From positions 96,001 through 160,000 of the IMG/VR virus record IMGVR_UViG_3300027969_000043: DNA of 64,000 nt. One strand, written 5' to 3'. The position numbers and the translations under genes were made by a program. Shown piece by piece: positions 15,228 to 58,645 of the stretch. The DNA is from a virus. Each line of letters starts with the position of its first letter. The first letter of the stretch is position 1. The notes beneath the pieces are model-generated. The model saw nothing but the letters and a program-made list of their open reading frames with translations. It was not told where the DNA came from and did no database searches.

Positions 15228-15611
15228 ATGCCAAGGAAAAAAAAACAAGATGTAAAAGTAAATGACGTTGAAAGCTTAGAGGGTTTAATGCAAGAAACTT
15301 ACAATGATGCGTGTCTACAAATAAATGATGCTCAACGAAGCATAAATGAATTAGCATCAAGCGCCACACCACAAGATGTAGACGATTTAACAAAAATAGC
15401 TAAAGAAAAAGGTGGTCTTTTAAAGGTAAAAGATTCTGCGATTAGAATTAAACTAGAATTAGCAAAACTACAAAGCGATATACTTAAAAATAGAGGCGAT
15501 GCCGAAACAGCAATTCAAGAAAGAACTGATGGCAAAGCGTCTTTAAATGATTTTAAATCAATTAGGGAAATGCTTAAAAACGATAAGGATATTGAGAACC
15601 AACAAGATTAA
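15228..15611 (+). CDS. hypothetical coiled-coil protein
   Basis: 127-aa ORF after the late-type motif. Confidence 0.65.
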   Translation: MPRKKKQDVKVNDVESLEGLMQETYNDACLQINDAQRSINELASSATPQDVDDLTKIAKEKGGLLKVKDSAIRIKLELAKLQSDILKNRGDAETAIQERTDGKASLNDFKSIREMLKNDKDIENQQD

Positions 15612-24010: not shown

Positions 24011-24059
24011 AATTATAAATATACAAACAACCTATATAAAAGTCAAGTTATTAAAACAA

Positions 24060-34390: not shown

Positions 34391-34398
34391 ATAAATAT
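34391..34398 (-). promoter_or_regulatory. candidate late promoter motif ATATTTAT
   Basis: 13 nt before the terminase ATG. Confidence 0.65.
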
Positions 34399-40235: not shown

Positions 40236-41915
40236 TTACTTTTTTCTACCTTGACAATGCGCCTTTTGGCTAAATCCCTTTGGGTTATTACAATCTATGC
40301 TTTTTTTATATTTTGCTGACCACTTTTCTTTTAGTGCTTCCATATCAACAGATTCATCTGTACTATTTCCCCAGTTGGCAGCGCCAGCTTTTCTACACTT
40401 AACCAAAGCCCCAGAAGCATAAGCCGATGGCCATACATCATATCTAGCTCTTACTTTATGGTAACAAGCATCTTTTTTTGTTTTCTTTTTTTTCTTTTTA
40501 CCCTCTTCTACTACTTCATATATTTCATATTCATCTAAGATGTCATTAGAACCTTCTTGGAACATGTTATTTTTTTTAATGTTTTTTAATATAAATGCAT
40601 TTTCAAACATTTTGTTATAATCAACTTCTTCTTCATATGATTCAACATCAACACCTAAATTTTTTAATTTATCTAAGATATAATACATTTCCTCATTATC
40701 AGAAATTTCGGACTGAACGTCTTGTATGAATTCTTCTCGATTTATTTTATCACTAAAAGAAACCAATCTAGTTAAAATATGTAAAATTTTAGTATTTTCT
40801 TGTTTAAGATTATCATCATATATTTTGATTAACATCTTAGATTTCCAATCATCCAACGACATTTCGGCTAACATTGACGATTTCTCGAATTCATCTTGGT
40901 CAATTTCTCCACTTTTATATTTTTGTGTTATATCTCCTATTTTTTTACCATGCTCACCACTCAATCTTTGAAATTCGGCTTTCCAACCAGTTTTCATTGG
41001 TGTATTATCTTTTAATTTTTCAAAAGTATTTGGGTTAGCCAATTCGTTTACTTTAACGATTTCTTTTTCGTAAATCATTGATTTGAAAATATTATCATTT
41101 AACTTACGATTTTCACTACGAGTTCTATGCCACGTTACGAAAAAAAGTATACTATTTGATTTCCAATCAACTTTAGTTACTGTATAGTTACAATCCCTAT
41201 TTTTGTCGTAATATATATCACCTTCTTGTACCCATAAATCTGCCCATGGTGCCGATTCCCCATCCTCAAATAAATTTTCTGAATCATCAGTTTCTTCAGT
41301 ATCTTTAGTTTCGGTATCAGTTGTTTCACCGTCATCAGTGGTTTCGGTATCCGTAGTTTCTGTGTCAGTTGTTTCGGTATCGGTGTCATCAGTAGTTTCG
41401 GTGTCATCCGTTGATTCTTCATCGCCGTCACCCTTTCCAGAACTTTTTACTTTCTTTATGATATCTTTTTGGTCTTCAGCATCCATCTCACCAGTATGCG
41501 TTGCTGACAATAAAGAATTTACAGCAAATTTTTCTAAATCAAAATCTGGCTGACCTTGGTCTTCATTATATTTTCTAAGAGATTGTCCTAATTTACCTGT
41601 AAGTTGTTCTATGAATTTTTTAGGGTCTGACTCTTCGTCAGCTTCAACACCAGCATCAAACGGTTCGTCGTCAAATGGTTTATCACTTGAACCGCTATCA
41701 TCAGTTGCTGTATCATCAGTTGGAGTTTCTTCAGACGATGTATCTGCTTGGTCTTCTGTACCAGCATCATCTGTACTAAAATCTAAATCATCTGTAGGTT
41801 CTTCAGCGGGCGCTGAATCGGTTGGGGGTTCAGCTGGAGCTGGGGCCGCTTTAGCCCCTAGCTTCAACTTGTATTTTACTTCTTCTAATGGAGCTTCAAA
41901 AGACTCAATTAGATT
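40236..41915 (-). CDS. acidic modular head protein, likely the -1 frameshift extension of 41909..42850
   Basis: Frame opens right at the A10 run; no ATG for about 130 codons; C-terminal DACYHKV..WPSAYASGALVKCRK and KWSAKYKKSIDC..KGFSQKAHC modules. Confidence 0.65.
   Translation of the reverse strand, partial: NLIESFEAPLEEVKYKLKLGAKAAPAPAEPPTDSAPAEEPTDDLDFSTDDAGTEDQADTSSEETPTDDTATDDSGSSDKPFDDEPFDAGVEADEESDPKKFIEQLTGKLGQSLRKYNEDQGQPDFDLEKFAVNSLLSATHTGEMDAEDQKDIIKKVKSSGKGDGDEESTDDTETTDDTDTETTDTETTDTETTDDGETTDTETKDTEETDDSENLFEDGESAPWADLWVQEGDIYYDKNRDCNYTVTKVDWKSNSILFFVTWHRTRSENRKLNDNIFKSMIYEKEIVKVNELANPNTFEKLKDNTPMKTGWKAEFQRLSGEHGKKIGDITQKYKSGEIDQDEFEKSSMLAEMSLDDWKSKMLIKIYDDNLKQENTKILHILTRLVSFSDKINREEFIQDVQSEISDNEEMYYILDKLKNLGVDVESYEEEVDYNKMFENAFILKNIKKNNMFQEGSNDILDEYEIYEVVEEGKKKKKKTKKDACYHKVRARYDVWPSAYASGALVKCRKAGAANWGNSTDESVDMEALKEKWSAKYKKSIDCNNPKGFSQKAHCQGRKK
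41330..41415 (-). repeat. imperfect tandem repeat (about 15 nt) encoding TDTET/TDDTET
   Basis: Protein segment TDDTETTDDTDTETTDTETTDTETTDDGET; boundaries approximate. Confidence 0.6.
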
Positions 41916-41923
41916 TTTTTTTT
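41884..41923 (-). other. candidate -1 frameshift site: A_AAA_AAA slippery run plus 3' stem-loop
   Basis: AGT-A10-TCTAAT-T-GAG-T-CTT-TTG-AAG-CTC-C-ATTAGA on the minus strand. Confidence 0.6.
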
Positions 41924-47382: not shown

Positions 47383-47398
47383 ATAATATTTATTTGAT

Positions 47399-47791
47399 AT
47401 GAAAAAGTCATTATTAAAAGAACATCTATTTGACAGGGATTCTGAACCGCAAATAAAGCTGTTAAAATTATTCCTTAATTTTACCTGTAAGTTCTTGGGT
47501 ATTAAATGCCCAAAAATAAATCTAAGGTTTAATAGAGATGGACTGACAACAACTGCAAGTTATAGTACTAACAATGTTATCATATATGCTAAGGATAGAG
47601 CTTTGGTCGATATCATGAGGTCAATTGCTCACGAACTAGTACACCTAAAACAAGATGTTGAGGGTAGACTAGAACAAACTGAACATGACAAAAATAACGA
47701 AGCTGGCTCACCAATTGAAAACGAAGCAAATGCTGTAGCTGGACAGATAATAAGAAAATTTGGTGAAGAACACCCAGAAATATATGTATAA
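47399..47791 (+). CDS. small zinc metallopeptidase-like protein
   Basis: SIAHELVH plus ENEAN; leader MKKSLLKE; ATATTTAT at 47386-47393. Confidence 0.7.
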   Translation: MKKSLLKEHLFDRDSEPQIKLLKLFLNFTCKFLGIKCPKINLRFNRDGLTTTASYSTNNVIIYAKDRALVDIMRSIAHELVHLKQDVEGRLEQTEHDKNNEAGSPIENEANAVAGQIIRKFGEEHPEIYV

Positions 47792-48638
47792 TATTAAAAA
47801 AATATTAAACGAAGAACTCTTACTGAATAGTAGAAAAAATCTATTGTCAGAACAATCTCTTATTTTAATCAACGACCATAGTCATATAAACCACGTTCTA
47901 GGTATAAAAACACCTATCAATGAAATTTACTCATTAGCATTAAGAAAACAAATCATAGAAGAACAATTAATGTTGGAAGACCTTTTAGGTTCGATAAGCA
48001 AATTTGTTGGTTCAGCTGTTGAAAAAGGAAAAGAAAAAGTTATATCTGTTGTAGACTCAATAAAAAATGTTAAAGATATTGCTTTATTATTTAAAGACTT
48101 GATACTATCACCAGAATACATGGCAAAAGCTACAACCGTTATGGGTAAAACCTGTAATAATATTGCTGATAGATTAAAAAACAAACTAGTAACAATAGGA
48201 ACCAAACTAGGCGATGCAGCTGGAAATATGTTAGATAAATTTAATGCGTTGATTCAAAAAGCTATTGACCTTCTGATTAAACTAGCTAATGGTACTGGAT
48301 GGAAAGGATTTTTAACAATGTTAGGGTTTAGTATTTTAATGACACTACTCGAAACAAAAATACTTGATATGATTATTAATCAAGGTATTAAAATTTTAGA
48401 TAAATTCACAAATATCATTGATGGAGCAACAGACATGCTGAACGGTTTTAAAGAATTCGCAACTAGCATTATTTCAACTCTAGAAATCTCACCGATAATA
48501 TCTTGGATTACAGATAACGTAATCAAAACAACGTTGGGTAGTTTTTTTAGTGGTGTTAATATAATTAATGTTATAGGACTTATTTTGATTCCAGTAATCA
48601 AAGCAATCGATTGGTCAAAAAAATTAGTAAAAAAATAA
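47784..48638 (+). CDS. hypothetical protein with LxE leaders and hydrophobic helices
   Basis: MYNIKKILNE..LLSE..INE..MLE; hydrophobic segments FLTMLGFSILMTLL and IINVIGLILIPVI. Confidence 0.6.
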   Translation: MYNIKKILNEELLLNSRKNLLSEQSLILINDHSHINHVLGIKTPINEIYSLALRKQIIEEQLMLEDLLGSISKFVGSAVEKGKEKVISVVDSIKNVKDIALLFKDLILSPEYMAKATTVMGKTCNNIADRLKNKLVTIGTKLGDAAGNMLDKFNALIQKAIDLLIKLANGTGWKGFLTMLGFSILMTLLETKILDMIINQGIKILDKFTNIIDGATDMLNGFKEFATSIISTLEISPIISWITDNVIKTTLGSFFSGVNIINVIGLILIPVIKAIDWSKKLVKK

Positions 48639-48641
48639 AAA

Positions 48642-50084
48642 ATGAATAGAGAAGAACTTATTGCAAAAGCTAGAGATATCGTTAATCAAGACGTTGTTAA
48701 AGGATTTACAGCAGATTTTTTAAAAATGGCAGCTAATGATACCGTTAACCCAAATAGATTTGAAACATATTTAAAAAATATCTCAGAACAAGCTTGGGAC
48801 CCAGGCACTGAAGAAAATACTATCTTTACATATAGTCAAGAATTGGTTGATATTGTAAAAGAATTATTCCCCAAAAATCTAGATTATCCATATCTTCAAG
48901 AAAGCGGCGTAAATACAGTTACAACAACACATATAAAAAGTAAAAAAAAAATCGAAAAAGGTCCTAATGAGATGAAAACATTTATTAAAAGTTCATTACG
49001 CGAATCTATCGTACCCCAAGAACCATTAACACCAAAAGAAGCGGCTATAAAAGTATTAAAAATGACCAAGGCAAGAGAGTTTCCAACGAAACCGCTACAT
49101 AAGCTAATGGTAAATATGATAGAGCATATTGAAGGTTTAGAGGATGTTAAACTTATTGAAGAATACCTATTAGAAAAACTTAGAGATAAAAAAATATCAC
49201 ACGCTGTAAGAGTTTATGTTATTAATAAGGCTAGAATGGCACTTATTGATGCCAATACACCGCCACCCTCAATAAACGAAGGTAGAGAACACACCGATGA
49301 CGAAATTGTAGATTTTAATGAGATTGACCTTCAACAAGAATACAATAAATTAAATCAGCTGCTATTTAATGGTAATCTTCAGCCAGTAACAATGTTATGG
49401 AATAAAAGAAAAGGAGCACACGGCGTTGTTAAAGGTACTAGAAGCAGAGCTACAGGTAAAATAACCCTTAAATCCCTTAGCATGTCCCAATTCCTTAAAG
49501 TACCATATAGATTCTTTAAAGATGTCTTAGCACATGAAATGATTCACGTATTCTGGATGCAACAAGATGTCAATGCTAAACATGGTCCTTTGTTTGTCCA
49601 ACAAATGAACAGAATTAACTCAATGGGGTTAGGATTTAACGTTAGTGTAAGGTCTGATTCATCAGAAACATCTAAGTTTGAAATGTCTTCAGACGTTGTA
49701 AAGGAAGGTATGGAACTTGTTTTTCTATTAATGAAGACAGATAAAGATGATAATATGTTTTCGGTTATGAAATATGATGCATATAAATCACAAGGATATA
49801 GAATTATTGATATCTACAATTACTTAGTTAACAAAAAACCTAAGTATAGATTTGCCGATGGTGAATTCTTTTTATCAACAAATCCAAGACTACAAGCTTC
49901 AAAAATACAAAGAAGCTTTGGTAGCGTAAGTTATTCAAGGATAGATAATGCTGTGGCTAATGAACTTAAGCAAAACGCTAAATTTTTGTGTAAATTTGAA
50001 ATTAATAATTCAAATGACGAACCACAGTTGTCTGGCCCTGACCAACCAAATCCAGCACCACCAAAAAGCTTATTAGGATTTTAA
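48642..50084 (+). CDS. modular protein with a SprT-like metalloprotease domain
   Basis: YNKLNQLLFNG..LAHEMIH..KHGPLF; internal leader MKTFIKSSLRE. Confidence 0.7.
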   Translation: MNREELIAKARDIVNQDVVKGFTADFLKMAANDTVNPNRFETYLKNISEQAWDPGTEENTIFTYSQELVDIVKELFPKNLDYPYLQESGVNTVTTTHIKSKKKIEKGPNEMKTFIKSSLRESIVPQEPLTPKEAAIKVLKMTKAREFPTKPLHKLMVNMIEHIEGLEDVKLIEEYLLEKLRDKKISHAVRVYVINKARMALIDANTPPPSINEGREHTDDEIVDFNEIDLQQEYNKLNQLLFNGNLQPVTMLWNKRKGAHGVVKGTRSRATGKITLKSLSMSQFLKVPYRFFKDVLAHEMIHVFWMQQDVNAKHGPLFVQQMNRINSMGLGFNVSVRSDSSETSKFEMSSDVVKEGMELVFLLMKTDKDDNMFSVMKYDAYKSQGYRIIDIYNYLVNKKPKYRFADGEFFLSTNPRLQASKIQRSFGSVSYSRIDNAVANELKQNAKFLCKFEINNSNDEPQLSGPDQPNPAPPKSLLGF

Positions 50085-50094
50085 ATATAAAAAT

Positions 50095-50117
50095 AAACCC
50101 CGATTAAATCGGGGTTT
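50095..50117. terminator. bidirectional terminator
   Basis: AAACCCCGAT-TAA-ATCGGGGTTT between convergent genes. Confidence 0.8.
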
Positions 50118-50153: not shown

Positions 50154-51239
50154 TTATTTAATGTAAAATTCACCATTTTTCATTAACCACTTATGAAAAT
50201 CAACATCTCCGTTCTCTAATGGGGAGATAATATATTCAGTAAATATTTCACTTTCATAGTTACCTATTATACCCTGATGAATTTTATTAATAATATCGTT
50301 ATCTTCATTTTCAACATCATTCATAGCATCTAAAAACAATTTGTTAATTTCAGATTCTTCAAATAAATCTTTATCACACAACCAAAAATTATGTATCATA
50401 TATCTATCTAAACTAATTGGCTCAACATAAACAATGTTAATTTGCTGTGCCCATAAATCAATAAAAACATTAGGAAATATGTTTAACCATGTAACAGCAT
50501 AATCATTAACACCATCATTTTTAATACTAAAACCTAAAGATTTTAATTTTTTAAAATATTCAGTAAACCTGTTGTTTTTTTTATTTTCCCAGTTAGAGCT
50601 AAATTTTAGTCTATGTGCTGAGTAATCTACCCCAAACTCCCATTCTATTGATGTTTCATCAATAACTTCATTCATTTCTGGATGAAAAAACTTAATATGA
50701 TTTGAATCGTTAAATACAATACCATATTCTTTCCAATTACCTCTTTGCTCATAACTGTTTTTTTCTAAAATTTCATATTTTGAAAAATCAAAGTCTTTTA
50801 AAAATTTTGATTTTTTTAATTCATCCGCTAAACTTTCACTACTAAATAAAAACATTTCGTATTCAAAAATTTCTTTTTTACTTTTTATAGATAAATTTTT
50901 TGATTTACAATCAAAATTACTACAAGGGGCTACTAACAATTTACCATCCAAATCATATGTCCAAAAATGTACAGGACAAATTAATTTATCTTTTTTAACA
51001 TCTTTTTCGCTTGAAATTAACTTGGCATTTTTATGAAGACAAGAATTATTTAATAAATTATATTTATCTGTTTTTGTTATAATATATCTTTCTGACAAAA
51101 AATCAACAACGTAAAAGTTCCTATCATTAACTAATTGCTTTAAACCTATAAAATTAGAAGGTGAAAAAAAATTTACAATTTCATTATAAAAAATATCATA
51201 ATTTGTAAAATTTTTTTTATTCCAGTTAATCTCAAACAT
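50154..51239 (-). CDS. Rieske non-heme iron oxygenase alpha-subunit-like protein
   Basis: CLH-x18-CPVHFWTYDLDGKL; NWK..DSNHIKFFH (D-x2-H-x4-H); NEDNDII..HQG. Confidence 0.8.
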   Translation of the reverse strand: MFEINWNKKNFTNYDIFYNEIVNFFSPSNFIGLKQLVNDRNFYVVDFLSERYIITKTDKYNLLNNSCLHKNAKLISSEKDVKKDKLICPVHFWTYDLDGKLLVAPCSNFDCKSKNLSIKSKKEIFEYEMFLFSSESLADELKKSKFLKDFDFSKYEILEKNSYEQRGNWKEYGIVFNDSNHIKFFHPEMNEVIDETSIEWEFGVDYSAHRLKFSSNWENKKNNRFTEYFKKLKSLGFSIKNDGVNDYAVTWLNIFPNVFIDLWAQQINIVYVEPISLDRYMIHNFWLCDKDLFEESEINKLFLDAMNDVENEDNDIINKIHQGIIGNYESEIFTEYIISPLENGDVDFHKWLMKNGEFYIK

Positions 51240-51259
51240 TTCTATTTTTTATATAAATA

Positions 51260-51736
51260 TCACACCTCCCCAATAAATTCATGGCTAAAACAAATTCTCC
51301 TATTGTCAAAGTAATGTTCTTTATACATGTTTTTTATGGAAACATCTTTTCTAAGTTTTTTATTTTTACTTGTTGCAACCCACAATGGCGAATTTTCTCG
51401 ATAATACCCCATCTTAGGGTGCGCGGTTCTTGAAAAGAATCTAAGACCTTGTTCCACGTGGATTTCACCTATTCCATTAGAAAATCTAACACCCATACCC
51501 ATACCTTGATAATCTGGGAGAATAACCGTCCTATGACTACGCCATGCATCCTTTAGTGTACCACTCGGCATTGCAATACTAGCACAAAACGCAACAATCT
51601 CATCTTCCCATACACCTAAATAACACCTAGCTGCTTTATTTATGTTACCATCTAAATAATGATAGTCTTTAAACATGGGCCAGATATTATGGCTTGTTCG
51701 ATATATCTCGAGATTGATTTTTGGGCGGGCAAAAAA
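51260..51736 (-). CDS. GNAT acetyltransferase domain, likely expressed by -1 frameshift from the upstream ABC ATPase
   Basis: HRTVILPDYQGMGMG; frame open from the slippery site (FARPKINLEIYRTSHNIWPMFKDYHYL); track start is 51676. Confidence 0.75.
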   Translation of the reverse strand, partial: FFARPKINLEIYRTSHNIWPMFKDYHYLDGNINKAARCYLGVWEDEIVAFCASIAMPSGTLKDAWRSHRTVILPDYQGMGMGVRFSNGIGEIHVEQGLRFFSRTAHPKMGYYRENSPLWVATSKNKKLRKDVSIKNMYKEHYFDNRRICFSHEFIGEV

Positions 51737-52329
51737 AAACCCTGATGGAATTCACCAGTATCAGTATCTATAACCCAATCAGGTTCTAACCAATCTAGTA
51801 TATCGCGGTGACATGTAGCTAAAACAATATTGTTTATATCATTATTTTTAACATATTTACTCAAAGACACGCTAGCAGCTTTTGCTACATTCCTATCTAC
51901 AACGCTTGTAAACTCATCAATGACAGCATTTGACTTTAATTTTCTAGCTAAATCAGCTCTAAACTTTTCACCGTTTGATAATACATGATATGGTTTATAC
52001 CAAGAAGGTATTGTATTTAACCCAACGGCACCTAACTTGTTTATTGATTCATCTGGAGATTCAAAATGTGATACGATTGATTTTGTACCATCCCATTCTG
52101 GTGAATCTTCAACACCAAAGTTTTTTAGTAATGTTGACTTACCAGAACCGCTGGAACCAACAATTACACCAATCTTAAATTGTTTTGGAATGTTACTTGG
52201 AAGAATCCAAGGATAAAATTTAGATGTACCGTCAAATATACAATCAAATGCTCTTTCACTGGCTTTGATAAAATCATCTCTATCTACTGTAGAGATTAAA
52301 GGGGTTGAAGTTTTAATTAATTTTTCCAT
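51652..52329 (-). CDS. soluble ABC-family ATPase
   Basis: GSSGSGKST, LSNGEK, AVIDEFTSVVDR, ATCH; no membrane partner gene nearby. Confidence 0.85.
   Translation of the reverse strand: MEKLIKTSTPLISTVDRDDFIKASERAFDCIFDGTSKFYPWILPSNIPKQFKIGVIVGSSGSGKSTLLKNFGVEDSPEWDGTKSIVSHFESPDESINKLGAVGLNTIPSWYKPYHVLSNGEKFRADLARKLKSNAVIDEFTSVVDRNVAKAASVSLSKYVKNNDINNIVLATCHRDILDWLEPDWVIDTDTGEFHQGFFLPAQKSISRYIEQAIISGPCLKTIII
51731..51742 (-). other. candidate -1 frameshift site G_GGU_UUU / U_UUU_UUU
   Basis: Minus strand CAG GGT TTT TTT TTG; the -1 frame is closed by TGA just upstream and open downstream. Confidence 0.65.
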
Positions 52330-52382
52330 CTATGATAAATATAGATATCTACCATACGATGTAAAGTATATAAAATACAATA

Positions 52383-52408
52383 GCTATTGGGTCTCTCAAC
52401 CCAATAGC
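52383..52408 (-). terminator. hairpin, probable terminator
   Basis: GCTATTGGGT-CTCTCA-ACCCAATAGC. Confidence 0.6.
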
Positions 52409-52436
52409 CTTTAATATTTTTAAAACTTAATTTAGA

Positions 52437-52711: not shown

Positions 52712-53221
52712 TTACTTGGCATATTTATCGCCGCAATAACTTGCAGCCCACGCACTCGGCTTTACCTTAAACTCATAACCCATACCCAATATATAACCAA
52801 TGGCTTGACTTAACGATTTGCTAGATTCCCATTTTGGGTCTGGGTTTATATCAGCATGAATCTCCATGCTTATACCATACAATTCAAGCAATGGCGCAAT
52901 CTCATAAGCAACCTCAATTGATTTGCCAACTTCTGTTAACATCCTTTCATTCACGCCCTCTTTATCTTTACCAAAAACATTGATATTATATGTTGCAGAT
53001 ATAATCTTCCCACCCCTACCAACTGTTACACCACCACCAATATCTTCTCTAACGGTAATCAAGATAACTGTTGCAAACTTATAACCCCTACTATTTTTTT
53101 GTGAGTCGGTACCAACAGAAACCCTTAACTCATGTTTCAATTCTAATTCTTCCTTGATTAAAGATTCTAAATACTCTAACAATGGAACATTAATTTTTTT
53201 ACCAGCTCTTTCCCATTTCAT
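52712..53221 (-). CDS. RNase H-like YkuK/DUF458-family protein
   Basis: SVGTDSQ, RGG, RMLTEV..S, EIHADIN, VKP.AWAASY.GD. Confidence 0.8.
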   Translation of the reverse strand: MKWERAGKKINVPLLEYLESLIKEELELKHELRVSVGTDSQKNSRGYKFATVILITVREDIGGGVTVGRGGKIISATYNINVFGKDKEGVNERMLTEVGKSIEVAYEIAPLLELYGISMEIHADINPDPKWESSKSLSQAIGYILGMGYEFKVKPSAWAASYCGDKYAK

Positions 53222-55955: not shown

Positions 55956-55981
55956 ATACCATAAATATCTTTATAAATAAA

Positions 55982-58097: not shown

Positions 58098-58645
58098 TCG
58101 TAGAACTAATACCTAAAACTTGCCAATACTCAAATGTCAGAACCACACTCAAAAAAAAAGAATGGGATAAAATACGATTAATCGTATACGAAAAAGCTGG
58201 ACATAAATGTGAAATATGTCACCAAACTGGTTTAGAACAAGGTTATCGACATAAATTAGAATGTCACGAAATCTGGAAATATAACGACACAAAAAAAATA
58301 CAAAAACTTGTTGGTCTTATAGCACTATGCCCACTATGCCACCAAGTAAAACATATCGGAAGAACCTCATTCATTGGCAAACAAAAAATAGCGCTAGATA
58401 GACTATCCAATATAAACAAATGGAATCTAGAAGAAGTTACACAACACGTAGCTGAAGCCTATGAAAAAAATAAAGAAAGGTCCAATTTTGATTGGACCCT
58501 TGATATATCTTTATTGAAAAAATCACCCTATAATATTGTTATCAATTCAACAGAAACTCGTAAATACGAAAAAGTTAAATACAAAAAACGTAAATATATA
58601 AAAAAGAAAACCGCTAAAAGAAAAAGACCAAAGAAAAAAAATTAG
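58067..58645 (+). CDS. HNH endonuclease-like protein
   Basis: W..IR..VY..AG..CEIC, LECHEIW, ALCPLCHQVKH; basic tail. Confidence 0.75.
   Translation: MAKKVQEPKLIVELIPKTCQYSNVRTTLKKKEWDKIRLIVYEKAGHKCEICHQTGLEQGYRHKLECHEIWKYNDTKKIQKLVGLIALCPLCHQVKHIGRTSFIGKQKIALDRLSNINKWNLEEVTQHVAEAYEKNKERSNFDWTLDISLLKKSPYNIVINSTETRKYEKVKYKKRKYIKKKTAKRKRPKKKN

Follow-up and report, generated by a model that had tools for sequence, protein, structure and literature searches.

The locus analysed here lies on the minus strand of a window of 64,000 nucleotides, which comprises bases 96001–160000 of the IMG/VR viral contig IMGVR_UViG_3300027969_000043 (168,871 bp, G + C content of about 30%). CheckV estimates the contig to be about 48% complete, and it therefore stems from a jumbo phage with a genome of roughly 350 kb. 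Three co-oriented open reading frames (ORFs) were found where a preliminary description of the window had placed them. These are an ORF for an ABC-type ATPase (51652–52329), an ORF for an acyltransferase of the GNAT superfamily (51260–51676 as called, 138 amino acids (aa)) and a gene for an alpha-type subunit of Rieske non-heme iron oxygenases (50154–51239, 361 aa). The ATPase ORF codes for 225 aa, consisting of a complete ATPase domain followed by a 26-codon out-of-frame tail, and overlaps the called GNAT ORF by 25 nt. When compared with Pfam, the ATPase ORF matched ABC_tran with 27.1 bits (cut-off 25), and the Rieske ORF matched Rieske (PF00355, E=1.4e-10) and Ring_hydroxyl_A (PF00848, E=7.2e-17). 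The GNAT ORF gave weak matches to GNAT families (Acetyltransf_7, E=0.014). No permease gene is adjacent to the ATPase ORF, and the encoded ATPase belongs to a soluble fused family and not to a transporter, in line with its earlier description as a soluble ATPase.

A search of IMG/VR with the ATPase part yielded 121 relatives, and the analysis was continued with the best 80. These comprise 37 closest loci, with an ATPase identity of 64–80% to the window and some contigs of 230–368 kb, and 43 more distant loci. The closest loci originate from about 30 different metagenomes. The more distant loci, which are mostly on small phage contigs and show 55–61% identity, feature a single in-frame ORF of 346–385 aa. 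By profile comparison, the ABC ATPase and the GNAT are one gene of the phrog_11143 family, because the profile of this family spans both ORFs and the distant relatives are in-frame fusions. Along the 357 positions of the profile, the ATPase ORF corresponds to positions 40–194 (E=6.5e-63) and the −1 frame to positions 199–351 (E=5.2e-39). A search with a profile of the fusion returned at least 3768 protein clusters (90% identity), almost all of them phage-borne, with source names reading 'ABC-type ATPase ... / GNAT superfamily N-acetyltransferase'. The JGI label of the PHROG 11143 family is 'ABC-type ATPase with predicted acetyltransferase domain'. Among its members are Tenacibaculum phage pT24, Aeromonas phage PX29 and Nonlabens phage P12024S.

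The same two domains in the same order, with all ATPase and acyl-CoA motifs intact, are common to the family and the window. Invariant positions of the ATPase alignment are Walker A (G58/G61/G63/K64), the signature (L117-S118-x-G120), Walker B (D138-E139) and the H-loop (H174), and the acyl-CoA loop of the GNAT (Q82-G83-x-G85-x-G87) is conserved. In contrast to the in-frame members, the window and about 35 jumbo-phage contigs hold the two domains in different frames, so that a −1 shift is required. In the structure predicted by AlphaFold for L028, an in-frame sequence from the jumbo-phage clade (pLDDT 85.8), an ABC nucleotide-binding domain precedes a complete GNAT fold. When this model was examined with Foldseek, its N-terminal half matched ABC transporter ATPases and nucleotide-binding domains, and its C-terminal half matched the small GNATs 1y9k, 2ae6 and 1yvk (TM ~0.63). 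A profile search of the PDB gave matches to generic nucleotide-binding domains of the ABC type and, weakly, to one GNAT, but no solved homolog of the fusion, and a scan of NCBIfam assigned no family to the GNAT part. Phage Mu Mom, an acyl-modifier of DNA adenine to which the GNAT had been likened in the preliminary description, has a GNAT-superfamily fold and DNA as the proposed target in common with it. However, Mom lacks an ATPase domain, and a Pfam scan of the GNAT ORF with E values up to 0.1 gave only Acetyltransf_7 and Acetyltransf_1 and no match to Mom, so that the GNAT is not a Mom-family protein.

Two further copies of the family differ from the pattern described above. The pT24 copy (LC168164.1, L087:2812-3984) lies in a single frame with one in-frame TGA within the GNAT part (...WNGVPV*INVIS...) and is annotated as two 'ABC transporter' coding sequences. 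A nonsense mutation or a sequencing error would account for this TGA, and it may also be a site of read-through. Streptococcus prophage 315.4 (L085, NC_004587.1 13548-15552) carries a 225-aa homolog of the ATPase alone, without a GNAT. Its gene overlaps an upstream gene with a ParB-N domain and lies near an ASCH-domain gene and a terminase gene, which is a different set of partners.

At the frame junction, the ATPase frame of the window reads CAG GGT TTT TTT TTG, and a −1 shift is needed at the run of nine T (T9). The recoding site consists of GG and T9, with the zero-frame heptamer U_UUU_UUU, and is located at 51731–51741 on the minus strand (T9 at 51731–51739). By standard decoding, the two domains, which are in frames 0 and −1, do not end up in one chain. 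In the −1 frame, the nearest upstream stop lies 8 codons before the first codon past T9, and the frame is then open through the GNAT; the ORF in this frame (51260–51751, including the stop at 51260–51262) codes for a linker and the complete GNAT domain. The site was compared in the 37 closest IMG/VR loci, a relative from Logan (L082) and the window, with identical sequences merged. In 30 distinct sequences, the flanks of which are strongly diverged, the site reads exactly GG-T9-G, and the GNAT lies in frame −1 relative to an ATPase in frame 0. Two distinct sequences (L012 and L028/L029) have a run of ten T (T10), and their fusion is in frame. Another two (L033/L034 and L036) lack a homopolymer; in these, A_AAT_TTT occupies the corresponding codons, and the frames are again offset by −1. 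A scan for more A_AAT_TTT variants yielded only these two lineages and one unrelated match. The suggestion that the GNAT is joined to the ATPase by a −1 frameshift had been made from the window alone and gains considerably from the T9 and the identical shift in 30 distinct relatives. No report of a frameshift in the ABC-ATPase/GNAT gene was found in the literature searched, and relative to this literature the conserved recoding of ABC-GNAT in a jumbo-phage clade, by two different signals, is new.

Codon choice and substitution patterns were used as additional markers. The codon TTC occurs within the T run in none of the 30 T9 sequences. With one exception, the other conserved phenylalanine columns have it in 2–9 of the 30 sequences, and it makes up 23% of the phenylalanine codons overall. 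The ratio of nonsynonymous to synonymous polymorphism (pN/pS) of the GNAT in T9 genomes is 0.29 in the −1 frame, compared to 1.11 in a control frame, and is 0.25 for the ATPase. Judging by these values, purifying selection acts on the GNAT part in exactly the genomes with T9, and the GNAT is thus probably expressed. Normal decoding would yield a 225-aa protein with the ATPase only. A −1 slip of the ribosome on U_UUU_UUU would yield an ATPase-GNAT fusion of about 356 aa with the junction ...G-F-F-F-A-R-P..., and insertion of one U by RNA polymerase at T9 would yield the identical fusion of about 356 aa. Judged from these features, both the short ATPase and the fusion are probably made.

Two observations weigh against recoding and need to be considered here. 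Within the 72-nt overlap of the two frames, pN/pS values of 0.58 and 0.66 do not separate the frames, and most of the clade, 28 of the 32 distinct sequences, retains an ATG at an internal position of the GNAT frame. The latter would fit a fission of the gene without recoding, in which a 225-aa ATPase and a 138-aa GNAT started from the ATG at 51676 are made separately and perhaps associate non-covalently. The overlap of the two called ORFs by 25 nt, as is frequent in coupled genes, and the stand-alone ATPase homolog in Streptococcus prophages are also in favour of fission, although methionine is not conserved at the internal position in the in-frame relatives. An internal start nevertheless fails to explain the locus, because the stretch between T9 and the internal methionine, which is encoded in the −1 frame only, contains the family-invariant residues R9, P10 and W24 as well as strand beta1 and helix alpha1 of the GNAT, all of which would be lost, and because two loci have no start codon there. 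These are L013 with CTG and L030 with ATC, in which the next start is codon 53, within the GNAT core. Fission would also leave unexplained why T9 is absolutely conserved and why it is replaced by a textbook heptamer and stem-loop at the same codons. We consider it unlikely for this locus. It is even less probable that the T run acts as a hypermutable switch (off with T9, on with T10), belongs to a decaying pseudogene or results from a homopolymer assembly error. Replication slippage and sequencing errors occur readily in homopolymers of 9–10 nt, in-frame T10 variants exist in L012 and L028/L029, and the interruption of the pT24 copy by TGA means that inactive copies do occur. Against these points stand the presence of T9 in distinct sequences from about 30 metagenomes, the selection on the GNAT in exactly these genomes and the same frame change in the A_AAT_TTT lineages, which takes place without a homopolymer. 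Sequencing error and a pseudogene are rejected on account of the conservation of T9 together with the purifying selection.

The mechanism of the shift was examined separately for the two signals. In the A_AAT_TTT lineages, a stem of 10–12 bp starts 6 nt downstream of the heptamer. The fold z-scores of the stems are −3.75 and −4.09, and none of 200 shuffled sequences was as stable. Two base pairs are compensatorily changed between the two lineages; the changes in the 5' arm are synonymous and paired with amino-acid changes in the 3' arm. Because the heptamer is combined with a strong stem at this distance and with compensatory pairs, the element is, by its sequence features, a canonical ribosomal −1 frameshift signal. 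The situation at T9 is less clear. Downstream of T9 in the window, the fold z-score is −1.38 and not significant (18 of 200 shuffles as good), with values of −0.91 for L002 and −0.71 for L016, and RNAalifold, applied to the 30 T9 sequences, yielded no consensus structure on either side of the run. In the register of the homologous stem, 64% of cells in T9 lineages are pairable compared to 19–42% with a slid partner, in a test for which the stem structure was derived from one of the tested sequences. Covariation in this stem is not significant, as 82 of 500 shuffles reach the observed score. Both the non-significant fold in the window and the weak, non-significant support for this stem count against recoding at T9.

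A small hairpin (CTGGTG/CATCAG, 51742–51758 on the minus strand, −6.6 kcal/mol) is located directly 5' of T9, and about a third of the relatives have a hairpin at this position, with the arms GTGAA/TTCAC, GTCAA/TTGAC and GTCAT/ATGAC. Hairpin and GG+T9 together resemble an intrinsic terminator within the gene. With a z-score of −1.08, which is not significant, the hairpin might stimulate polymerase slippage or partial termination. For T9, we consider a ribosomal slip on U_UUU_UUU and transcriptional slippage to be roughly even candidates, and both may contribute. That the fusion arises mainly by transcriptional slippage, with one U added, and not by ribosomal −1 frameshifting, is a possibility to be taken seriously, without being the one we would favour. 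Runs of nine A or T are known slippage sites in Shigella mxiE (T9) and Thermus dnaX (A9). The window resembles mxiE and Thermus thermophilus dnaX in the run of nine nucleotides, in the lack of a strong downstream structure and in the restoration of the frame by one added nucleotide. Also in favour of the polymerase are the absence of significant structure after T9, where the non-homopolymer variants need a strong stem, and the covarying arms of the 5' hairpin. However, unlike in these two examples, the T9 of the window is equally a ribosomal slippery site, since U_UUU_UUU is also a perfect heptamer for tandem slippage. The ribosomal signal is clear in the A_AAT_TTT sister lineages, the 5' hairpin is neither significant nor universal, and other A9 or A10 runs of the window (15237–15245, 48942–48951 and 58151–58159) lie within intact ORFs. 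A T10 run (A10 on the minus strand) is present at 41914–41923, at the junction of two ORFs of the head region.

Known systems in which a slippery heptamer leads to a short and a long product in a fixed ratio are dnaX of E. coli (tau/gamma), the phage tail-assembly chaperones (G/GT) and the IS3-family elements (OrfA/OrfAB). They share with ABC-GNAT the common N-terminal domain of both products and the conservation of the signal across diverged relatives. In contrast to them, the predicted long form of ABC-GNAT adds a catalytic acyltransferase to an ATPase, and its sister lineages would use two signals, either a bare T9 or A_AAT_TTT with a stem.

The third gene of the locus encodes a protein with all ligands of a Rieske oxygenase, as had been noted before. 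The cluster ligands C67/H69 and C88/H91 and the 2-His-1-carboxylate iron site with its bridging Asp, D178-x2-H181-x4-H186 and E312-D313, are invariant in 12 of 12 family members, and the protein model has a pLDDT of 81.3. The family is small, with 12 clusters among 5.8 billion proteins, and phage-borne; a search of IMG/VR with the Rieske protein yielded no relatives. Its nearest neighbours by sequence and fold are Stc2, 3n0q and CntA, which are alpha-only quaternary-ammonium monooxygenases, followed by NdmA/B. The best sequence matches have E values of 6e-10 to 1e-6, and Foldseek gave E values of 1e-15 to 1e-13 with TM scores of 0.55–0.68. The match to the GbcA model NF058607 (47.4 bits, cut-off 670) is below equivalog level. 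The window protein is similar to the stachydrine demethylase Stc2 (3vca, 4qup), the carnitine monooxygenase CntA (6y8j, 6zgp) and GbcA in being alpha-only, about 360–400 aa in length and equipped with the same ligand set. It differs from them by an identity of only 12–17% and by the lack of a reductase partner on the contig: no match to Fer2 (PF00111) or NAD_binding_1 (PF00175) was found in its 168,871 bp, which represent about 48% of the genome. A partner may be encoded in the remainder of the genome or come from the host. Most likely, the gene is a self-contained cargo gene, the predicted product of which would oxidise or demethylate a small molecule with the help of host electron donors. 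The literature searched contains nothing on Rieske genes as auxiliary genes of phages.

Both the ABC-GNAT gene and the Rieske gene are preceded by the motif ATATTTAT on the minus strand. One copy (52335–52342) is located 5 nt upstream of the ABC start codon and the other (51253–51260) 13 nt upstream of the Rieske start, where it shares base 51260 with the GNAT stop. In the window, 40 copies of the motif were counted compared to 19 +/- 4.3 expected, and 18 of the 40 lie 4–32 nt upstream of ORF starts on the same strand. Because of this twofold enrichment and the position near ORF starts, ATATTTAT is regarded as a general gene-proximal element of this phage, probably a promoter. Examples of further sites are 24015–24022, 34391–34398, 47386–47393 and 55961–55968. 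Both hairpins that had been reported to bound the locus are present, as are the two motifs. The terminator-like hairpin at 52382–52409, which was scored on both strands (12-pair stem with 5 GC pairs, then a T-rich tail), closes an upstream gene for a 68-aa protein and bounds the ABC-GNAT unit. A second one follows the Rieske gene on the minus strand (50095–50117; 10-pair stem with 5 GC pairs, then a T-rich tail), where this gene and a plus-strand gene for a SprT-like protein converge.

All 37 closest loci share the gene order g112-g107-g114-LRR-RNaseH-like-g68-ABC-GNAT, and the convergent block that comes next has clpB as its last gene. Of the conserved neighbours of ABC-GNAT in the jumbo-phage clade, the RNase H-like DUF458 protein on one side is encoded at 52712–53221 of the window, and the convergent side (47399–50084) codes for an M78/IrrE-like peptidase, a SprT-like metalloprotease and a ClpB/ClpC-type chaperone. 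The hosts of the jumbo-phage clade are probably Bacteroidota. Between the GNAT stop and the convergent block lies an island, the length of which ranges from 17 bp (L016) to 4.8 kb (L021). In sister phages, its cargo consists of unrelated ORFs, including SLT-like, metallopeptidase-like and unknown genes. A second, partial 3' end of the GNAT, 65–71% identical to the GNAT of the window, is located in the downstream island of two loci (L010:7968-8222 and L011:7793-7954), which suggests past recombination or insertion at the island.

The preliminary description had combined the three genes into a cassette, in which ATPase, GNAT and Rieske oxygenase would act in one pathway on DNA bases, a metabolite or virion parts, and had allowed for the Rieske gene being an unrelated insertion. 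It is this caveat that is borne out by the neighbourhood search, since a Rieske gene was found within 6 kb of ABC-GNAT in 0 of the 80 IMG/VR loci (the best 80 of 121). The reading as a cassette is thus largely refuted by the lack of co-conservation, and we regard it as very unlikely. What can be said for it is that the three genes are co-oriented and adjacent, in a block flanked by terminators, and that the closest relative (L082, ATPase 83% identical) has a Rieske gene with intact ligands in the same island, downstream of ABC-GNAT. That the gene was kept there at 65% identity, hence despite a divergence of 35%, weighs against a complete separation of the two and is compatible with a functional link specific to this lineage. 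However, two unrelated genes intervene in L082 between GNAT and Rieske, namely a 43-aa ORF and a SET-domain (methyltransferase-like) gene (L082:7503-7889). The clpB homolog of this contig (L082:10409-13232) was called as two genes and has a faint intein match. Four of six Rieske contexts are without ABC-GNAT. In L083, a terminator is followed by a ATATTTAT motif and then by the Rieske gene, which adjoins NlpC/P60. The homologs in L094 and L095 are near gp23 and a prohead protease, and near GH64, PAP2 and NUDIX genes, respectively. Two other homologs are close to genes of nucleotide metabolism, which would fit a cassette; the one in L084 lies beside GTP cyclohydrolase I (FolE), dCTP deaminase and PolB, and that in L096 near dUTPase and dCMP deaminase. 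Based on its absence from the 80 loci, the variable island, its own ATATTTAT motif and the unrelated contexts of its homologs, the Rieske gene appears to be separate cargo with its own promoter-like motif and terminator. Taken together, it is likely that the locus contains two unrelated things, one recoded ABC-GNAT gene and a Rieske cargo gene.

For the product of the ABC-GNAT gene, an ATP-coupled acylation enzyme, as proposed earlier, is a reasonable reading given two intact catalytic domains. The ATPase domain is predicted to form a head-to-tail ATP-sandwich homodimer. The dimer model reached an ipSAE of 0.83 compared to 0.00 for the best control, with a partner pLDDT of 92 and at least 97% of contacts shared by three runs, and places the signature residues 118–121 on the Walker A residues 60–65 of the partner. 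Among proteins solved as pairs, 20 of 30 attain an ipSAE of 0.83, as does 1 of 23 solved as single chains, and the score of the model may stem from its resemblance to ABC dimers of known structure. As the ATPase domain is common to the short and the long chain, these would mix in dimers, and the frameshift rate would then set the proportions of dimers with zero, one or two acyltransferase heads. By ATP-driven clamping or scanning, the enzyme would deliver an acyl-CoA-derived group to nucleic acid, most likely to bases of the phage DNA.

This target is proposed because of gene neighbourhoods and a published prediction. In small phages, the gene order AEP primase – ABC-GNAT – UvrD – DNA polymerase A was found, and ABC-GNAT also adjoins DnaB, an SNF2/HARP helicase, RusA and GMP reductase. 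In Nonlabens phage P12024S, it sits between primase and helicase. According to a passage in PMC7824862, the pairing of ABC-ATPase and GNAT is predicted to modify a DNA base with an uncharacterised acyl group (Iyer, Zhang, Burroughs and Aravind 2013), and the same source notes the pairing in jumbo phages such as Tenacibaculum phage pT24. The earlier view of an undescribed system is therefore not tenable for the pairing itself. The literature searched contains no biochemical or other experimental work on the ABC-ATPase/GNAT family. Two points weigh against acylation of DNA in the jumbo-phage clade: the neighbours there, the RNase H-like DUF458 protein and the LRR protein, are not replication genes, and the role is a reasoned prediction from neighbourhood and the published proposal. 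We tentatively suggest, as a possible but rather doubtful model, that two interchangeable signals set the ratio of ATPase-only to ATPase-GNAT chains, and that an asymmetric dimer with a single acyltransferase head acylates the phage DNA.

Gene callers report ABC-GNAT as two genes with the misleading names 'ABC transporter' and, for the smaller one, 'acetyltransferase'. Setting the Rieske gene apart removes a false pathway inference and draws attention to an oxygenase clade, small and confined to phages, that may represent an auxiliary metabolic gene. As sister lineages have two types of signal, homopolymer slippage and classical −1 frameshifting could be compared in a natural setting. For the large ABC-ATPase/GNAT family, the predicted acylation of DNA bases has stood since 2013, as related in PMC7824862. 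The stoichiometry of ATPase and acyltransferase, which is apparently under selection, gives a concrete hint at the architecture of the enzyme. Should the proposed model hold, a nucleic-acid-modifying enzyme would for the first time be known to be controlled by programmed frameshifting.

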